Positions 3,738 through 35,387 of a stretch of 41,297 nt of DNA are shown piece by piece. The notes under the pieces are model-generated. The model was not told where the DNA came from, made no database searches, and was given only the letters and a program-made list of their open reading frames with translations. Position 1 is the stretch's first letter, and each line of letters begins with the position of its first letter. Source of the stretch: a virus (lineage: Duplodnaviria; Heunggongvirae; Uroviricota; Caudoviricetes); IMG/VR virus record IMGVR_UViG_2897346870_000001, positions 1 through 41,297 of that record, one strand, 5' to 3'. The position numbers and the translations under genes are program-made.

Positions 3738-4555
3738 ATGTACATATCCTGTTTGCGTGCCCACTCAGGGCGTTTAATGATTTCCACACCGCCCCATTCA
3801 TCATTGATGCGGCATTCGTGATAGGTATTCAGATCCCGGCGGAACAGAGCGTGCCCGGCATCGACATCCTGCGCATCCAGCTCGAACACGCGTACCGGAT
3901 ACCGACCACAATCAATGCTTTCGCTCACGGCAAGAAAGAAAAAACCATGCGGCTGACCAGTAACCCTCATTGCGCCTTCGCGGTACATTGCGTCCTGCAC
4001 GTGGTAGCGGAATTCCTCGATGTGGCGTGCAAAACGGTCCATATCTGCAACCTTTTTCACGTCGACGATCACGTTGTGCTCGTTCAGCCATTTGTCTGGA
4101 CGAATTCGGCACAACTCACCCGTCTCTTCATCGTTCCAGTACATTGATGCTTCGCAGTAACCAGGTGCTTCCAGCATCCAGCGTGCCGCCGGATGAGCCA
4201 TTGCGCTATCACGCATCAGCTCCAGTTTTCGCCACTGCTCGACATCAAGTACCGTAATACCCATATCCGCCACATCACGAAGAAATGCTTCTTCGTCAGC
4301 TTTACCTTGTTTTGTCCGACGATCGAACTTCGGTGAAACAATGAAGCGTTTGTCGAATTCTCCAGGCTCCAGAAGCAGACAGTGCAATGCGGTTCCCATA
4401 TCCAGTGCAGACTTTTTCTCTTCGTCTTCTGGTGCTGCCTGAACCCATTTAAGAAGCGCCGGATTCTTGGCAACCATGTCCAGTTGCGACTTACTCACGC
4501 CGTCACCGGCGTGGTAGTCTTCGTTGCTGATGTCGAAATAAATTCCCGGTTTCAT
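3734..4555 (-). CDS. PD-(D/E)XK exonuclease (YqaJ / lambda-Exo-like recombination nuclease)
   Basis: 273 aa; N-terminal GIYFDISNEDYHAG and internal D...E.K signatures of YqaJ-type phage exonucleases; paired with the RecT-like gene. Confidence 0.7.
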   Translation of the reverse strand: MKPGIYFDISNEDYHAGDGVSKSQLDMVAKNPALLKWVQAAPEDEEKKSALDMGTALHCLLLEPGEFDKRFIVSPKFDRRTKQGKADEEAFLRDVADMGITVLDVEQWRKLELMRDSAMAHPAARWMLEAPGYCEASMYWNDEETGELCRIRPDKWLNEHNVIVDVKKVADMDRFARHIEEFRYHVQDAMYREGAMRVTGQPHGFFFLAVSESIDCGRYPVRVFELDAQDVDAGHALFRRDLNTYHECRINDEWGGVEIIKRPEWARKQDMYI

Positions 4556-4851
4556 GCCGCTTCCCTCTGCCCATCAATCCGATCCGCCAGATCCCAGCGG
4601 GCGATAATTGCCATTGCCTCGCGCCGGTAGGCATCCATAAGTTCTTCGAACTCAGGGCTGTCTTTAGCTGCCTCCAGCACTTCCTGGCGAACTCCTTTGC
4701 CTGTTACAGCGTCAAAAGTTGAGGCCAGTTGATGAAGCCGGATGCTCTCGATCAGTTCAACTTGTCGGTCATATAGCTGTTCTGACAGGCGGTAGTCCTT
4801 GTCGAATGCCAGCATGATTTTTTGAAGATTTTTCTGCTGATTAACGTTCAT
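4552..4851 (-). CDS. Hypothetical early protein
   Basis: About 100 aa (MNVNQQKNLQK...), overlaps the exonuclease start; first protein-sized gene of the leftward operon. Confidence 0.45.
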   Translation of the reverse strand: MNVNQQKNLQKIMLAFDKDYRLSEQLYDRQVELIESIRLHQLASTFDAVTGKGVRQEVLEAAKDSPEFEELMDAYRREAMAIIARWDLADRIDGQREAA

Positions 4852-4853
4852 TA

Positions 4854-5006
4854 TCAGCCCTCCCATATCTCGTTATCGTTGGCCACATCGCGAGCTTCTT
4901 TGCTGACGAAAGCCCACTTAATGCCTTCCTGTAAGGTGCGGAACTTCCAGCTCATGAATCCGCATGCAGTAACGCAGTACCAACCGTTGATGATTTTCCA
5001 CTGCAT
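4854..5006 (-). CDS. Small ORF (50 aa) absent from the ORF track
   Basis: Hand translation MQWKIINGWYCVTACGFMSWKFRTLQEGIKWAFVSKEARDVANDNEIWEG; GAGGT Shine-Dalgarno 9 nt upstream; stop is 2 nt before the next gene start. Confidence 0.25.
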   Translation of the reverse strand: MQWKIINGWYCVTACGFMSWKFRTLQEGIKWAFVSKEARDVANDNEIWEG

Positions 5007-5159: not shown

Positions 5160-5744
5160 TTATTGTTTGTTTTTTTCGTTCTGGTTGATGACAAATTCAA
5201 TATAACTTTCGATCTTTGCTTTCTCGGTTTCGGGTAACAATGCGTAGCGCGAGCGGTCATAGTTGATGGTCGCAGGGTCGTGCGGGTGAATCAGTAATTC
5301 ATAGCCGTGACGCCCGAATGCGGATGCAACATTCTCCAGGGTGGAAATGGAAACGCTGACCTCATTGTTTAACAGGCGGCTGATTGTCACCTGGGCGACG
5401 CCGGATGCGCGGTGAAGTTTTCCCTGTGTTGAAAGGTCGCGGCTTTCGCTCATCCAGCGTTCCAGGTTGTGAGCCGCCAGCTGACCAATGTCGCTTGGGC
5501 CGACAGGCTGAAAACCTTCCTGAGAAAGCGAGCGATCGATATCAAGCCAGTTACGTGGTTTATTGGCGGCAGCTTCAATTTTTCGCGCAACCTGGTCGCC
5601 GATAACCTTCTTGCCAAGAGCCCAGCGGTTTACCAGATTTGCCTGAGTTCCAAGTTTTTCTGCCATCCGCGTCTGAACACCATTGAATTCACGGTCGATC
5701 AAGTCGTTGAGATTTTGCCTGCGGACGTCCTGGATACTTTTCAT
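5160..5744 (-). CDS. Prophage repressor, tandem HTH (XRE-type), no peptidase S24 domain
   Basis: 194 aa with two HTH-like segments (TRMAEKLGTQANLVNRW and ASGVAQVTISRLLNN); divergent from the Cro-like gene across a three-operator region; no LexA-like Ser/Lys autocleavage module recognised. Confidence 0.75.
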   Translation of the reverse strand: MKSIQDVRRQNLNDLIDREFNGVQTRMAEKLGTQANLVNRWALGKKVIGDQVARKIEAAANKPRNWLDIDRSLSQEGFQPVGPSDIGQLAAHNLERWMSESRDLSTQGKLHRASGVAQVTISRLLNNEVSVSISTLENVASAFGRHGYELLIHPHDPATINYDRSRYALLPETEKAKIESYIEFVINQNEKNKQ

Positions 5745-5799: not shown

Positions 5800-5862
5800 T
5801 TACCCAACAGGTAAATGCACCTCATAGGTAACTATCCTTGATTTTTGTTACCTTATGGGTGA
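5800..5862. promoter_or_regulatory. Tripartite OR-like operator region with divergent promoters
   Basis: Three 15-bp sites: 5800..5814 TTACCCAACAGGTAA, 5817..5831 GCACCTCATAGGTAA, 5848..5862 TTACCTTATGGGTGA. Candidate rightward promoter (-35 TTGTTA 5845..5850, -10 TATTAT about 5868..5873) overlaps the third site. Confidence 0.55.
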
Positions 5863-14137: not shown

Positions 14138-14335
14138 GATCTCACCTTAAAAAAATGCCCGGCGACCCGGGCGAACTGGAAGCAATGAGTTATGCCTTCC
14201 GTGGCTGTACTGGTTTACAGCATGAAGTCATCGCAATGGCGTCCTGCTGTAAAAAGGGCGGTGATAGTCCTTCAAGGGAAACCATCACCGCCAAGCACCT
14301 GGAACTTCTGGCATCACGGTCCTTAGGCGTGATTC

Positions 14336-14412
14336 TGGCGTGGCATGCAGGATTCGAACCTGCGACCAACCGCTTAGAAGGCGGTTGCTCTGTCCAACTT
14401 AGCTAATGCCAC
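14336..14412 (-). tRNA. tRNA-Arg (anticodon UCU)
   Basis: 77-nt minus-strand cloverleaf: 7-bp acceptor stem GTGGCAT/ATGCCAC, anticodon stem ACCGC/GCGGT with loop CTTCTAA (UCU), T-arm GCAGG-TTCGAAT-CCTGC, discriminator G plus encoded CCA; close to E. coli argU in the 3' half. Confidence 0.85.
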
Positions 14413-30890: not shown

Positions 30891-31262
30891 ATGAACAGAA
30901 TTATATTAATGATTATTCTTATGCTTTTAGTTGTAAAATCTTTTGCAGATACTACCTCACCGTTAATGATTCAGCCTAAAAATGGGGAAACACTGGAGGA
31001 TTCTAAAAAGCATACAATGGAATATTTTGGATGTATAAAAGGGCAGGCCGTAAAATACGCTAAGACAGGAGAAAGTGTTGATTCTATATCCAAAGCTTCG
31101 GTTGTGTCATGCGAGTCGTACATACAAAAGATTGCTGAATCAAATATATACTATTTAAATTCCTCTCAAGACGGTAAGCGGAAATTTATTGGAAGGCTTA
31201 AATCAGATGGTGAAAGTTTAGCAACGAAATTTGCTATGGATGAAAAGCTAAAAAATAAATAG
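30891..31262 (+). CDS. AT-rich moron: secreted protein with signal peptide
   Basis: 123 aa; N-terminal MNRIILMIILMLLVVKSFA signal peptide, two Cys; GC content visibly much lower than neighbouring genes; start 1 nt after the preceding stop. Confidence 0.55.
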   Translation: MNRIILMIILMLLVVKSFADTTSPLMIQPKNGETLEDSKKHTMEYFGCIKGQAVKYAKTGESVDSISKASVVSCESYIQKIAESNIYYLNSSQDGKRKFIGRLKSDGESLATKFAMDEKLKNK

Positions 31263-31412: not shown

Positions 31413-31619
31413 TCATTTTCGTAAAGCCATACAAATCATGGCTTGCACCCCACCGGCAGAAGGTATGGTGATTTCCACCATACCCTTCGAGAAGCGTTGA
31501 GAAATCTTCTTATGTTGAGATTTCCAGTCTAGACCCATTCCCTCAACGATAGGTTTCATTGGGGTGTACGGTTCGCCGTTGTGATTGACAACATAAAGTT
31601 CTGCGCCGTGGAATGGCAC
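31413..31619 (-). pseudogene. Possible truncated antirepressor/Rha-like N-terminal fragment
   Basis: 68-aa GTG-initiated ORF (VVNHNGEPYTPMKPIVEGMGLDWKSQHKKI) resembling N-terminal DNA-binding domains of Rha/Ant proteins, with no Shine-Dalgarno and no C-terminal domain. Confidence 0.2.
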
Positions 31620-31766
31620 GTTGATAGTAGTGACAAATTTGAAACATCGCTGGTTGTAAGCCAGCAGATGCTCGTTATTTTACGTCGCGGCACAATTTCT
31701 CGCTGCTGGCTCTTTTACACGCATTAACCAAATATGGTTGATTTTAATATCCACCTGTGCCTATTA

Positions 31767-31846
31767 TTACCTTTGCGGTAAATTTACATCGCACTCCTCT
31801 TGTGCCATAGTAATCGGGCACTGGCAAAATCCAGTGCCGGGATTGG
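31767..31846. repeat. Inverted repeat IR-A, left copy (antirepressor promoter/leader)
   Basis: About 80 bp, near-identical in reverse complement to 34928..35007; includes operator TTACCTTTGCGGTAA (31767..31781) and the palindromic hairpin GCACTGG-CAAAAT-CCAGTGC. Confidence 0.8.
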
Positions 31847-32048
31847 TCTCCCGGATTACTACAGAGGCACATATGCCGCATAAGCGGTTTTTTTATGTGT
31901 AAAGCGCACCTATTCTATGGTGGGCTGTGTGGGGGCACCGAAAGGTGCGCCGGGTTCCTTTGTAGCCGGTAAGACCAACTCTGCACAGTTCACCACCATC
32001 TGATTGGTCTCAGCGGTGGTGATTAACCTAACTACAAAGGTGATCGCC

Positions 32049-32741
32049 ATGAATACCAAACCTTCCATCTTTTCCTTTGAGTCATCCTGCCAGATCCGTA
32101 TGTTCATGATTGACGGAGAACCTTGGTTTGTCACCAAAGATGTGTGCAATGCTTTGAATATTGATGTTACACAAGCGAGAAAACTTGATAAAAAAGGCTG
32201 GAACAAAAAGGGGCTGTATTCAATACAGACCCCTGGTGGAATACAAGAACTATCCATCGTTTCAGAATCAGGTCTCTACATCCTTATTCTGCGTTGCAAA
32301 GAGGCAATGACTGAGGGAACGAGAGCATTCAGATTTCTTGAATGGGTTACAGGTGAGGTTCTTCCTCAGATCCGCCGCACCGGAAGCTACATTAAAAACT
32401 CGCTCCCGCAGGAAGAGCGCATAAAGATGGTTGCCGACCAGGTAGCCAACGCCACGGCGTCAGCAGTAATGCAGGCGATGAAGATAGAGAACAAAACCTA
32501 CAGTGCCCCACTGAAGCCCGGCTACCGCAGCCTGATTCATTCGCCGTCTGGTGTTCTCGGCCTGACGGAGAACTCACTGCTGATGAATCTGCTGAACCAG
32601 TTACAGGAAGACGGGCATGACGTATCGGGCGCGGCGGCGGAGTTGACCACCATGTTCTGCTACATCGTCGGTGTGAACAAATGCCTGCGTGATATCCAGA
32701 CGCACGCGGAGTACATCAACGACAAAGCAGGGTTCTTCTGA
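32049..32741 (+). CDS. Antirepressor, BRO-N N-terminal domain plus shared C-terminal domain (copy 1)
   Basis: N-terminus MNTKPSIFSFESSCQIRMFMIDGEPWFVTKDVCNALNI is a BRO-N-type fold; C-terminal 125 aa nearly identical to the gene at 34013..34723; AGGTGA Shine-Dalgarno. Confidence 0.7.
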   Translation: MNTKPSIFSFESSCQIRMFMIDGEPWFVTKDVCNALNIDVTQARKLDKKGWNKKGLYSIQTPGGIQELSIVSESGLYILILRCKEAMTEGTRAFRFLEWVTGEVLPQIRRTGSYIKNSLPQEERIKMVADQVANATASAVMQAMKIENKTYSAPLKPGYRSLIHSPSGVLGLTENSLLMNLLNQLQEDGHDVSGAAAELTTMFCYIVGVNKCLRDIQTHAEYINDKAGFF

Positions 32742-32743
32742 CG
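32341..32743. repeat. Inverted repeat IR-B, left copy (3' half of antirepressor 1)
   Basis: About 400 bp, near-identical in reverse complement to 34011..34413; produces mirrored 61-aa artefact ORFs in the track (32392..32577 and 34177..34362). Confidence 0.85.
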
Positions 32744-32778: not shown

Positions 32779-32815
32779 GTGACATGTCACAGGCCGCTTT
32801 CGCGGCCTTGTTTTT
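32779..32815 (+). terminator. GTGACATGTCAC copy 3 fused to a strong rho-independent terminator
   Basis: Palindrome 32779..32790 directly followed by AGGCCGC-TTTC-GCGGCCT plus TGTTTTT (32791..32815). Confidence 0.7.
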
Positions 32816-32975
32816 AACGAATGCCACCGCCACCCGGGCGGGAATCCGCAGAACGCCCACCGCAGCGGGAGCCGTCAGCAGCAGTGTCGCTGTCGTGCTG
32901 ACAACGACCGGCAAAGGCCTGAGTTGAAGCTACCAGAGACAACAAAACGAACAGTGCAGCAAATGCTTTTTTCAT
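32814..32975 (-). CDS. Small secreted protein (53 aa) with signal peptide
   Basis: MKKAFAALFVLLSLVASTQAFA signal peptide then a Gly/Arg/Asp-rich 31-aa mature region with two Cys; start at the internal ATG of track ORF 32814..33047. Confidence 0.4.
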   Translation of the reverse strand: MKKAFAALFVLLSLVASTQAFAGRCQHDSDTAADGSRCGGRSADSRPGGGGIR

Positions 32976-33056
32976 TGTGAAATTTCCATCTATAAACCAC
33001 CTCAATGTGGCGTCAATGAGTGTAGCACTGACTTTTGTTTCGTCCATAAAAAACTA

Positions 33057-33569
33057 CTATGCAGGCTTTTTGGATTTGTACGAATAATCCCACGGATAAA
33101 CATTTCTACTAAGTGGAGCTGTATTCGTTCGTTCATGAAATAATTTTGTGAAATTCAATACGGAATCCATCCAAACTTTTGCGTTAGCTTTGGTGTGTGC
33201 GGGCGGGTCCCAATAAGCTAGTAAGGCTGCATCTCTTATTTCATTGACTGCATATATGAGATATGCGTTACTGGTTGGTTTTGGCCTGTAATTTCCTTGT
33301 TCATCAATCAATCCATATGACCACTCATCCCAACACTGTTCAGTACATGAGTATGAATATGATGCATATTCACCAATATTGACATGAACCTTTCTGAGAT
33401 GGAAGCCTAATACTTCCTCTGGTCTTTCAAAAAGAGTATCTTTTCCCAGATCAGGATGATGACCATGACGCCAGTGTTGTTTAAAAGCATCTTTTAGCGA
33501 AATCAGAAAGTCATCAGTTTTAAACTCACCAGTAGGTATAACCTTCCCGCTATACTCACTCAAAAACAT
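33057..33569 (-). CDS. YafO-like toxin candidate (type II toxin-antitoxin family)
   Basis: By-eye alignment to E. coli YafO recalled from memory: HPDLGKDTLFE vs LPDIFGRDALYD, LRKVHVNI vs ERVAHIHL, AYLIYAVNEIRDAALLAYWDPPAH vs AHLVYCQGAFDEQAWLLIAILKPEPH. AT-rich; overlaps the upstream gene by 14 nt. Confidence 0.5.
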   Translation of the reverse strand: MFLSEYSGKVIPTGEFKTDDFLISLKDAFKQHWRHGHHPDLGKDTLFERPEEVLGFHLRKVHVNIGEYASYSYSCTEQCWDEWSYGLIDEQGNYRPKPTSNAYLIYAVNEIRDAALLAYWDPPAHTKANAKVWMDSVLNFTKLFHERTNTAPLSRNVYPWDYSYKSKKPA

Positions 33570-33882
33570 CGAATTCCTCTTCCTTCATATGCGTTTCTAA
33601 TGAGTTAAGCTGGCGGAAAGATATCTCTTTTGATTCTGCAGATGAGAGCTTTTTTATCCGCTTTATATTCTTTGTGATAGGAATAGACATTGTATGCACA
33701 TCAGCGGATGCTCTTGGCTTTGTGCTGATAAAAATATGGCGCAATGCCGCATTTTCACTATTGAACGAGCCAATAGCTGATTTACGTGCTACAACCTTAC
33801 CAGTAAAAATACGACTCTTGCTACGCTTTGCATGAGTTCCGCTTCTTACCGGACCTCTCATCACGAATCCAAGTTTTGTCAT
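33556..33882 (-). CDS. Putative antitoxin/partner of the YafO-like gene (unknown family)
   Basis: 108 aa, basic with acidic C-terminus (MKEEEFDVFE); first gene of a two-gene overlapping operon; GGAG Shine-Dalgarno. Confidence 0.35.
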   Translation of the reverse strand: MTKLGFVMRGPVRSGTHAKRSKSRIFTGKVVARKSAIGSFNSENAALRHIFISTKPRASADVHTMSIPITKNIKRIKKLSSAESKEISFRQLNSLETHMKEEEFDVFE

Positions 33883-33924: not shown

Positions 33925-33939
33925 TTACCTTTAAGGTAA
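33925..33939. promoter_or_regulatory. Operator palindrome TTACCTTTAAGGTAA upstream of the toxin-like operon
   Basis: Perfect-arm copy of the dispersed motif, 43 nt upstream of the 33882 start on the minus strand. Confidence 0.45.
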
Positions 33940-34010: not shown

Positions 34011-34413
34011 TGTCAGAAGAACCCTGCCTTGTCGTTGATGTACTCCGCGTGCGTCTGGATATCACGCAGGCATTTGCTCACACCGACGATGTAGCAGAAC
34101 ATGGTGGTCAGTTCCGCCGCCGCGCCCGATACATCATGCCCGTCGTCCTGCAACTGATTCAGCAGATTCATCAGCAATGAGTTCTCCGTCAGGCCGAGAA
34201 CACCAGACGGCGAATGAATCAGACTGCGGTAGCCGGGCTTCAGCGGGGCGCTGTAGGTTTTGTTCTCTATCTTCATCGCCTGCATTACTGCTGACGCCGT
34301 GGCGTTGGCTACCTGGTCGGCAACCATCTTTATGCGTTCTTCCTGCGGGAGCGAGTTTTTAATGTAACTTCCGGTGCGGCGGATCTGAGGAAGAACCTCA
34401 CCTGTAACCCATT
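34011..34413. repeat. Inverted repeat IR-B, right copy
   Basis: Reverse complement of 32341..32743. Confidence 0.85.
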
Positions 34414-34723
34414 TGCGAAAGCGGTAGGGGATAGTGCCTGGTGTCACTGCGTCGCGGCAGCGGAGGATCAGTGTGTAGAGGCCTGACTCGGAGATGATGT
34501 TGATCTCTTTTACTCGGCTGTCAAAAATTGCACGATGTTCATGCCCTATGTTGAACATAGACCTTTCATCATCATCCAGTTTTTCAAGTGCTTGGGTGAC
34601 GTTTTGGATACGCAGCGCACTACAAACGTCTTGGGCTACAAACCATGGTTGGCCATCGATAATGATGGAACGGATAGGGTTAACAGATTCAAATTTGAAG
34701 ATGGCAGTTTGAGCATTAGCCAT
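34013..34723 (-). CDS. Antirepressor, BRO-N N-terminal domain plus shared C-terminal domain (copy 2)
   Basis: N-terminus MANAQTAIFKFESVNPIRSIIIDGQPWFVAQDVCSALRI (BRO-N-type); C-terminal domain differs from copy 1 at only 2 of about 118 residues; GGAG Shine-Dalgarno. Confidence 0.7.
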   Translation of the reverse strand: MANAQTAIFKFESVNPIRSIIIDGQPWFVAQDVCSALRIQNVTQALEKLDDDERSMFNIGHEHRAIFDSRVKEINIISESGLYTLILRCRDAVTPGTIPYRFRKWVTGEVLPQIRRTGSYIKNSLPQEERIKMVADQVANATASAVMQAMKIENKTYSAPLKPGYRSLIHSPSGVLGLTENSLLMNLLNQLQDDGHDVSGAAAELTTMFCYIVGVSKCLRDIQTHAEYINDKAGFF

Positions 34724-34927
34724 GGTGGTTATCTCCACTTAGTGATTTTAATCACCACCGCAACGCCAATTACTGGTGGTGAACTGGACAAGGTTGGCGT
34801 ACCGGCCTAAGTGGTACCGGCGTCCTTTCGGACCCCTGCCCAGCCCACCATAATTCGGATATAGCTGTGCTTAACGCATAAAAAAACCACGTCTGGCGTG
34901 GTATGCGCCACTTAGTAACTCGGGACG

Positions 34928-35007
34928 CCAATCCCGGCACTGGATTTTGCCAGTACCCGATTACTATGGCACAAGAGGAGTGCGATGTAAATTTACCTCA
35001 AAGGTAA
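34928..35007. repeat. Inverted repeat IR-A, right copy (antirepressor 2 promoter/leader)
   Basis: Reverse complement of 31767..31846; contains operator at 34993..35007 (TTACCTCAAAGGTAA). Confidence 0.8.
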
Positions 35008-35038
35008 ATATAAGCACTCCACTTGGTAATTGCAAACC

Positions 35039-35296
35039 TTATCTGGTTTGCTTTCGTAATTGTTCGGCACAATAGTCGAGATGTGTTTGCAGATCCTGCA
35101 TAGACATCTGTGAGCTGGTGACGTAGTTAATCAGTGCAGTCAGTTCGGCAAGTGGGCCATCGACATTAAATCCATCCTTATCGAGATCCCGGAGTAATTT
35201 CATCAAGTGCGATCCCTCCACCAGTGATCTGACGCCTCCCGGCGTGTGAATCCTTTCGGTAAATCCCTCTTCCAGTGGATAGTGATACTGCTGCAT
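35039..35296 (-). CDS. Stand-alone paralogue of the antirepressor C-terminal domain
   Basis: 85 aa; TPGGVRSLVEGSHLMKLLRDLDKDGFNVDGPLAELTALINYV...DLQTH parallels SPSGVLGLTENSLLMNLLNQLQEDGHDVSGAAAELTTMFCYI...DIQTH of the two antirepressors; GGAGAAG Shine-Dalgarno. Confidence 0.45.
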   Translation of the reverse strand: MQQYHYPLEEGFTERIHTPGGVRSLVEGSHLMKLLRDLDKDGFNVDGPLAELTALINYVTSSQMSMQDLQTHLDYCAEQLRKQTR

Positions 35297-35372
35297 CTTA
35301 TCTTCTCCATGCAATAACTGTATAAATATACAGTATCAAATAATTTGTTTGCTATCCAGCACGTTTTGCAAA

Positions 35373-35387
35373 TCACCTGAAAGGTAA
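35373..35387. promoter_or_regulatory. Operator-like palindrome TCACCTGAAAGGTAA in the divergent region before the tailspike
   Basis: One-mismatch copy of the motif; CATATGTGGTT at 35418..35428. Confidence 0.4.

Follow-up and report, generated by a model that had tools for sequence, protein, structure and literature searches.

In the 41,297-nt stretch of phage DNA analysed here (the window), the 85-aa gene at 35296..35039 on the minus strand most probably encodes the primary LexA-controlled antirepressor of the phage (we put the probability at about 0.9), a protein which would couple the SOS response of the host to the inactivation of the non-cleavable repressor Rep. Judged by sequence, the gene is the orthologue of ant of Salmonella phage SPC32H and, as function and structure of the latter have been published, it is already known. 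The evidence from the window itself comprises the orthology, a LexA box and its conservation, a Rep orthologue, the co-occurrence of Ant and Rep and the synteny of the locus. The window belongs to an epsilon15/phiV10-like podophage of the genus Uetakevirus. The gene and the elements in front of it are:

35296..35039, minus strand: ant, small antirepressor of 85 aa (phiV10 gp24, epsilon15 gp19; PHROG 450), assigned from the ORF and its PDB and PHROGs matches
35305..35308, minus strand: Shine-Dalgarno sequence GGAG, 8 nt before the ant ATG, read from the sequence
35316..35335, minus strand: predicted LexA (SOS) box TACTGTATATTTATACAGTT, 18 of 20 consensus matches, 20 bp upstream of the ant ATG
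35373..35387, no strand: operator-type palindrome TCACC-N5-GGTAA with 1 mismatch, in the ant-tailspike intergenic region, from the palindrome search

The reading frame starts with the ATG at 35296, ends with the stop codon at 35039-35041 and encodes the protein MQQYHYPLEEGF...LRKQTR. 5' of the ATG, the window shares the conserved block GCATGGAGA with SPC32H, phiV10, ZX5, epsilon15, Tyrion and BUCT554. A TTG-extended reading of 91 aa (to 35314) was rejected on conservation, because the orthologues and the crystallised 86-aa SPC32H protein begin at the equivalent ATG. In a search of the PDB sequences (phmmer), the sole match to the protein was 5D50 chain E, "Anti-repressor protein" (86 aa), which aligned end to end (E=1.6e-47, residues 2-84). 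By tblastn, this chain is Ant of Salmonella phage SPC32H, where SPC32H_020 in KC911856 is annotated "ant: anti-repressor protein"; 74 of 83 residues (89%) are identical to the protein of the window. The protein furthermore matches phrog_450 ("unknown function") over positions 2-85 of the 88-position profile (E=1e-47). Pfam and NCBIfam scans returned no family model for it, and DUF724, with 17.6 bits under a cut-off of 38.4 bits, was discarded. The protein is a stand-alone single domain with no other Pfam domain above cut-off; specifically, the N-terminal Bro-N-type domain is absent in the Pfam scan.

The box in front of ant, scored against the LexA consensus TACTG(TA)5CAGTA, had been missed in the first-pass annotation of this DNA; the window contains no second AT-rich CTGT-N8-ACAG match. 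Further matches at 14205 and 18747 were rejected as LexA sites; their spacers are GC-rich and their number fits chance. Alignment reveals conservation of the ant box in SPC32H, epsilon15, phiV10, ZX5, Tyrion and BUCT554, with E. coli, Salmonella and Enterobacter as hosts, and relatives from Klebsiella and Cedecea carry a single mismatch (ATGT). The consensus promoter scan called no sigma-70 promoter over the box, where weak hexamers only are discernible by eye. In SPC32H, ant is reportedly repressed by LexA through a site overlapping its promoter, and a single base change in this site (phage SPC32N) is said to render Ant expression constitutive. LexA presumably binds at the corresponding box of the window as well. 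A stand-alone homologue from a metagenome, P0136, adjoins a lysozyme gene and exhibits no LexA box by eye, so that LexA control is indicated for the Uetakevirus clade only.

SPC32H, epsilon15, phiV10 and the window agree in the location of ant, which comes behind the long block of virion genes and in divergent orientation to the tailspike gene. The ant region shares 99.3% identity with Escherichia phage HEMP4 and about 92% with phiV10, in whose record the counterpart gp24 is noted as "similar to epsilon15p19". Orthologues with 60-98% protein identity are found in prophages of Escherichia, Salmonella, Citrobacter, Klebsiella, Enterobacter, Cedecea and Yersinia, and ant together with its upstream region is present in about 10% (528 of 5426) of the complete E. 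coli genomes. All 12 RefSeq E. coli matches listed that fully cover ant bear the label "hypothetical protein", since neither Pfam nor NCBIfam provides a model for it. Among 50,697 phage records, Ant occurs in 35 and full-length Rep in 36, and all 35 Ant records are among those 36. An HMM profile built from small Ants and the two fused domains described below retrieved only 61 clusters from 1.84 billion representative proteins; these are either stand-alone proteins of about 80-100 aa or C-terminal fusions to Bro-N, AntA, pRha or ORF6N domains.

The presumed target of Ant, and the sites to which this target may bind, are located as follows:

5160..5744, minus strand: rep, 194-aa repressor, SPC32H Rep orthologue and presumed Ant target (PDB 5D50_A, E=4e-42)
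5800-5814 and 5848-5862, no strand: two operator-type palindromes in the intergenic region of rep and a divergent ORF (start 5899), palindrome search
31767..31781, no strand: perfect palindrome of the operator type at the -35 element of isrK-1, palindrome search
34993..35007, no strand: perfect TTACC-N5-GGTAA palindrome of the operator type, immediately adjacent to the -35 of isrK-2 and 32 bp past the ant stop codon, palindrome search

Rep of the window contains HTH domains, and the domain scan yielded no match to Peptidase_S24, the self-cleavage domain. With a repressor of this kind, it is likely Ant that connects induction to the SOS response. Rep is 100% identical to Rep of phage ZX5 and 42% identical to SPC32H Rep. 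In the secondary literature on SPC32H, Rep is described to bind DNA as a tetramer, which is broken when an Ant tetramer binds two Rep dimers (PMC9638917), and the C-terminal domain of Rep is assigned to both tetramerisation and Ant binding (PMC9986798). The repressor had also been proposed in the first-pass annotation as a partner of the domain, which agrees with the binding of Rep by the SPC32H orthologue (PDB 5D50). Because Rep is 42% and Ant 89% identical to the respective SPC32H protein, the interaction of both proteins in the E. coli phage of the window is put forward by analogy: Ant would bind Rep. Despite this asymmetry in conservation, the half-sites of the operator are the same in both phages.

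The palindrome TTACC-N5-GGTAA (at most 1 mismatch) occurs at 14 sites in the window (5026, 5088, 5800, 5848, 8131, 8193, 11440, 11458, 14735, 31767, 33925, 34993, 35373 and 38344) against 0.64 expected, and at 18 sites in SPC32H against 0.74 expected. In both phages the sites cluster in the rep intergenic region, SPC32H having three at the place equivalent to 5800..5862. In the window they are mostly intergenic or in promoters and distributed over the genome, not just beside rep. The palindrome about 35 bp upstream of the ant LexA box is present in 7 of 7 aligned phages, and for its epsilon15 copy (ATTACCTTACAGGTAAT) the record of that phage has the annotation 'protein_bind: repressor, lysogeny'. 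In 7 of 8 isrK modules of related phages, a palindrome lies at the -35 of the isrK promoter, at position -51 (-48 in phiV10). From its positions and the epsilon15 annotation, TTACC-N5-GGTAA is a candidate Rep operator, and its distribution suggests direct control of many promoters by Rep, among them the promoters of the isrK modules.

Taken in sequence, induction would proceed as follows. In the lysogen, host LexA would occupy 35316-35335, overlapping the ant promoter region, and keep ant silent. Upon DNA damage LexA would be lost and Ant produced. By analogy with SPC32H Ant, the Ant tetramer would then bind the C-terminal domains of Rep and convert the Rep tetramer into dimers, and Rep, released from the TTACC-N5-GGTAA operators, would give way to lytic growth.

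On the 3' side of ant, the window carries two genes encoding Bro-N antirepressors, each preceded by a leader with two RNA elements:

34991..34963, minus strand: promoter-like TTTACA-17-CATAGT (TG before the second hexamer) for isrK-2, C4-2 and bro-ant2, consensus promoter scan
34956..34880, minus strand: isrK-type sRNA, copy 2, with intrinsic terminator at 34902-34886 (Rfam RF01394, 63.5 bits; gathering threshold 50)
34855..34772, minus strand: C4-type antisense RNA, copy 2 (Rfam RF01695, 66 bits; gathering threshold 45)
34013..34723, minus strand: bro-ant2, 236 aa, Bro-N (Pfam, E=1e-19) plus an Ant-like C-terminal domain at about 34016-34273
31818..31894, plus strand: isrK-type sRNA, copy 1 (RF01394, 74.7 bits)
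31913..32000, plus strand: C4-type antisense RNA, copy 1 (RF01695, 78.6 bits)
32049..32741, plus strand: bro-ant1, 230 aa, Bro-N (Pfam, E=2e-13) plus an Ant-like C-terminal domain at about 32481-32738

The first-pass annotation had described the 85-aa protein as homologous only to the C-terminal domain shared by these two antirepressors, and both parts of the statement hold. By BLASTP, its residues 2-75 match residues 160-233 of the 241-aa ORF 34738..34013 (antirepressor 2; 31 of 74 identical, E=1e-15) and, with the same number of identities, the C-terminal part of antirepressor 1 (ORF 32004..32741; E=6e-16), with no similarity to the Bro-N half of either protein. The C-terminal part of bro-ant2 also matches 5D50_E directly (E=2.3e-13), and an alignment of the 85-aa protein with ten small homologues and the two fused domains contains 21 invariant columns. 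The location of the ORF directly 5' of the promoter and leader of antirepressor 2 is likewise confirmed by the promoter-like site, isrK and C4 at 34991..34963, 34956..34880 and 34855..34772.

The products of bro-ant1 and bro-ant2 are 75% identical overall and almost identical over the last ~115 residues. Over the last 118 codons, 12 synonymous stand against 2 non-synonymous codon differences (dN/dS 0.044), and the fused copies are under strong purifying selection. ORF4 of phage ZX5, an 'anti-repressor', is 81% identical to bro-ant2 and 80% to bro-ant1, with a near-identical C-terminal Ant-like domain. When this Bro-N protein was overexpressed, lysogen titres fell about 1000-fold and transcription of the repressor by 75% (PMC9782041). 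As to distribution, a fused Ant-like domain is found in the phage collection only in records, almost all from Uetakevirus, which also contain small ant and Rep. A Cedecea prophage has the same layout with another N-terminal domain, namely ant, isrK, C4 and then a pRha protein with an Ant-like tail. Epsilon15 and BUCT554 possess the small gene only, without a Bro-N fusion. The Bro-N::Ant-domain gene of phiV10 (4300-4979) is divided between gp23 (194 aa) and gp22 (29 aa), with tblastn locating the domain in two pieces, so the fused copy seems to be broken in this phage while small ant is intact. By this distribution the Bro-N::Ant-domain genes are accessory, fusions that carry the Ant-like domain at their C-terminal end.

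The promoter-like TTTACA-17-CATAGT is kept in both copies of the window and in relatives. For C4-2, the boxes CCACTTAG and ACGCCAA have exact complements in its own isrK and in the bro-ant2 leader with the ribosome-binding site; for C4-1, the boxes CCTTTGTAG and AGACCAA have theirs only in its own isrK and in its own leader with the ribosome-binding site. These pairings come from an exact-complement search, RNA duplex folding of the whole sequences having given global pairings only. C4, isrK and leader boxes change together between the copies (31818-32048 and 34956-34724), so that each C4 is predicted to pair only with its own module, and this covariation supports hetero-immune RNA control, in the style of phages P1 and P7, of two antirepressor genes in one phage. 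On this reading, isrK/C4 RNAs control the Bro-N::Ant genes, and Rep itself probably does so too. A position behind an isrK/C4 leader with complementary boxes is found for bro-ant1 and bro-ant2; the ant ORF is not downstream of such a leader, its end lying 48 bp before the promoter-like site of isrK-2. In SPC32H and epsilon15 there are no isrK/C4 RNAs near ant, which is directly followed by a terminator and convergent virion genes. Homology of the window, or of phiV10, with SPC32H stops right after the ant stop codon, where operator and isrK promoter replace the terminator, and this break points to the Bro-N modules as insertions next to a pre-existing ant. The terminator of SPC32H and epsilon15 is absent at 34960-35039 in the window, likewise in phiV10, so that ant expression may differ from that in SPC32H. 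The first terminator 3' of ant in the window is that of isrK-2 (34902-34886); LexA-controlled ant transcripts may thus end with isrK sequence or extend into C4 and bro-ant2.

The Bro-N modules form inverted repeats, one of 504 nt (32239-32742 / 34012-34515, 89%) and one of 105 nt (31757-31861 / 34913-35017, 91%). The segment of 1.3-3 kb which they flank could be inverted through them. Among 5426 complete E. coli genomes, only 1 contains a match to 80% or more of the two-copy Bro-N region.

Two other readings of the 85-aa gene were weighed. The first-pass annotation had regarded the protein as a domain-only paralogue which could modulate the Bro-N antirepressors through mixed inactive oligomers or competition for the repressor, and would thereby tune induction instead of triggering it. 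The domain is indeed common to all three proteins, and ant and bro-ant2 are adjacent. SPC32H Ant is a tetramer (PMC9638917), which makes mixed assemblies conceivable, and since overexpression of the ZX5 Bro-N fusion favours lysis, the fused proteins are themselves active regulators (PMC9782041). Against this, the SPC32H orthologue acts alone, with neither a Bro-N fusion nor isrK/C4; epsilon15 and BUCT554 have just the small gene; and phiV10 has retained ant while its fused gene is split. Small and fused domains are 42% identical, in contrast to 89% between ant and its SPC32H orthologue across genera, and the LexA box marks ant as an SOS gene of the inducer type. In the phage collection, moreover, fused genes occur only in records that have small ant as well. 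The identification with SPC32H Ant thus speaks against a derived modulator, which we consider improbable, even though mixed oligomers of Ant and Bro-Ant are possible. We also rejected the idea that ant arose when part of bro-ant2 was recently duplicated: no DNA-level repeat involving ant came up in the repeat search, and SPC32H and epsilon15 have ant without a Bro-N gene.

That the ORF is a decaying, functionless remnant of such a partial duplication of a Bro-N antirepressor might be read from its shortness, its label as 'hypothetical protein' and the lack of a Pfam or NCBIfam match. Yet the ORF is intact, with 60-98% identity across the prophages of seven genera and occurrence in 528 of 5426 complete E. 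coli genomes, its ribosome-binding site and LexA box are conserved, and the orthologue has been expressed and crystallised with Rep (PDB 5D50), which leaves this reading a negligible chance. The primary, LexA-controlled antirepressor remains our preferred reading of ant. Since ant of SPC32H and epsilon15 has neither a Bro-N fusion nor isrK/C4 beside it, the gene is expected to work without them and to be the core gene of the locus.

How the three proteins with an Ant domain may act together is a more tentative matter. With Rep-type operators on the isrK promoters and no terminator behind ant, Ant may unlock the Bro-N::Ant genes. We propose, as possible rather than probable, a feed-forward induction circuit with two inputs. 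The first to act would be small Ant, which would remove Rep from its operators; two of these lie on the -35 of isrK promoters. Release of Rep would then unlock the two Bro-N::Ant antirepressors, each gated by its own hetero-specific IsrK/C4 pair, and these would reinforce or lock the inactivation of Rep, or else offer an SOS-independent route through IsrK. Transcripts of ant running into isrK-2 may in addition supply C4-sequestering RNA. Judging from the arrangement, these prophages may integrate several signals for induction, DNA damage via LexA and RNA-gated inputs via IsrK/C4.

The region holds several further small genes. On the minus strand, 33057-33569 encodes a YafO-family toxin-like protein of 170 aa (Pfam YafO_toxin, E=7e-4, below cut-off; YafO family toxin in RefSeq), preceded and overlapped by a 108-aa gene (phrog_5933) at 33556-33882 on the same strand; both follow bro-ant2, an operator palindrome lies at 33925, and the two genes may form a toxin-antitoxin or moron cassette. 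The small proteins encoded at 32814-33047 (minus strand) and 30891-31262 (plus strand) begin with sequences that resemble signal peptides (MKKAFAALFVLLSLVASTQAFA... and MNRIILMIILMLLVVKSFA...); they match no Pfam family and may be morons flanking the antirepressor hotspot. A 68-aa ORF at 31413-31619 on the minus strand (MPFHGAELYVVNHNGEPYTPMKPIVEGMGLDW...) resembles, by eye, a truncated N-terminus of a P22-type antirepressor, and in RefSeq relatives a 'phage antirepressor N-terminal domain-containing protein' is annotated within the matched region. If this ORF is a P22-type remnant, the same hotspot contains a third, decayed antirepressor-type gene. Outside this region, a tRNA gene (Rfam tRNA, 69.2 bits) at 14339-14412 on the minus strand corresponds in relative position to the annotated tRNA-Arg of SPC32H.

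With regard to annotation, the "hypothetical protein" of about one in ten complete E. coli genomes is likely the SOS induction trigger of phiV10/ZX5-type prophages. Literature on the E. coli members of the group (ZX5) credits the Bro-N protein alone with antirepressor activity, and small ant has been overlooked. The Ant fold at the C-terminus of the Bro-N, AntA, pRha and ORF6N "antirepressors" of these phages makes Rep a concrete candidate partner of a domain that had no assignment.

Small antirepressors under LexA control are known from coliphage 186 (Tum), N15 (AntC) and the Gifsy phages (GfoA/GfhA), in which a LexA-repressed small protein inactivates a repressor that RecA cannot cleave. Ant shares this logic, but a sequence relation to these proteins was not found in the profile search, whose 61 clusters are all Ant-like. 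RNA-gated translation of an antirepressor is the principle of the c4 RNA - icd - ant genes in the immI region of phages P1 and P7. The same logic is known from the isrK-orf45-anrP locus of Gifsy-1 (PMC4825925). The Bro-N leaders of the window follow it: they consist of isrK and C4, and the C4 boxes face their own isrK and the ribosome-binding site of the gene behind them. The likeness to Gifsy-1 and P1/P7 concerns the bro-ant genes and not ant, and the isrK promoter of the window differs in carrying the palindrome of the phage repressor. The study of the near-identical E. coli phage ZX5, which assigns antirepressor activity to the Bro-N protein ORF4, contains no occurrence of 'LexA' or 'SPC32H' and leaves small ant unmentioned (PMC9782041); ORF4 corresponds to the bro-ant neighbours in the window and not to the 85-aa gene. 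The closest system is SPC32H Ant itself. The phage of the window differs in its host, E. coli, in a Rep that is only 42% identical, in an operator, isrK promoter, C4 and Bro-N::Ant module in place of the ant terminator, and in a second, inverted module. Shared with SPC32H are 89% identity over the full length of a protein of 85 as compared to 86 aa, the genomic position, the LexA box, the upstream palindrome and an orthologous Rep.
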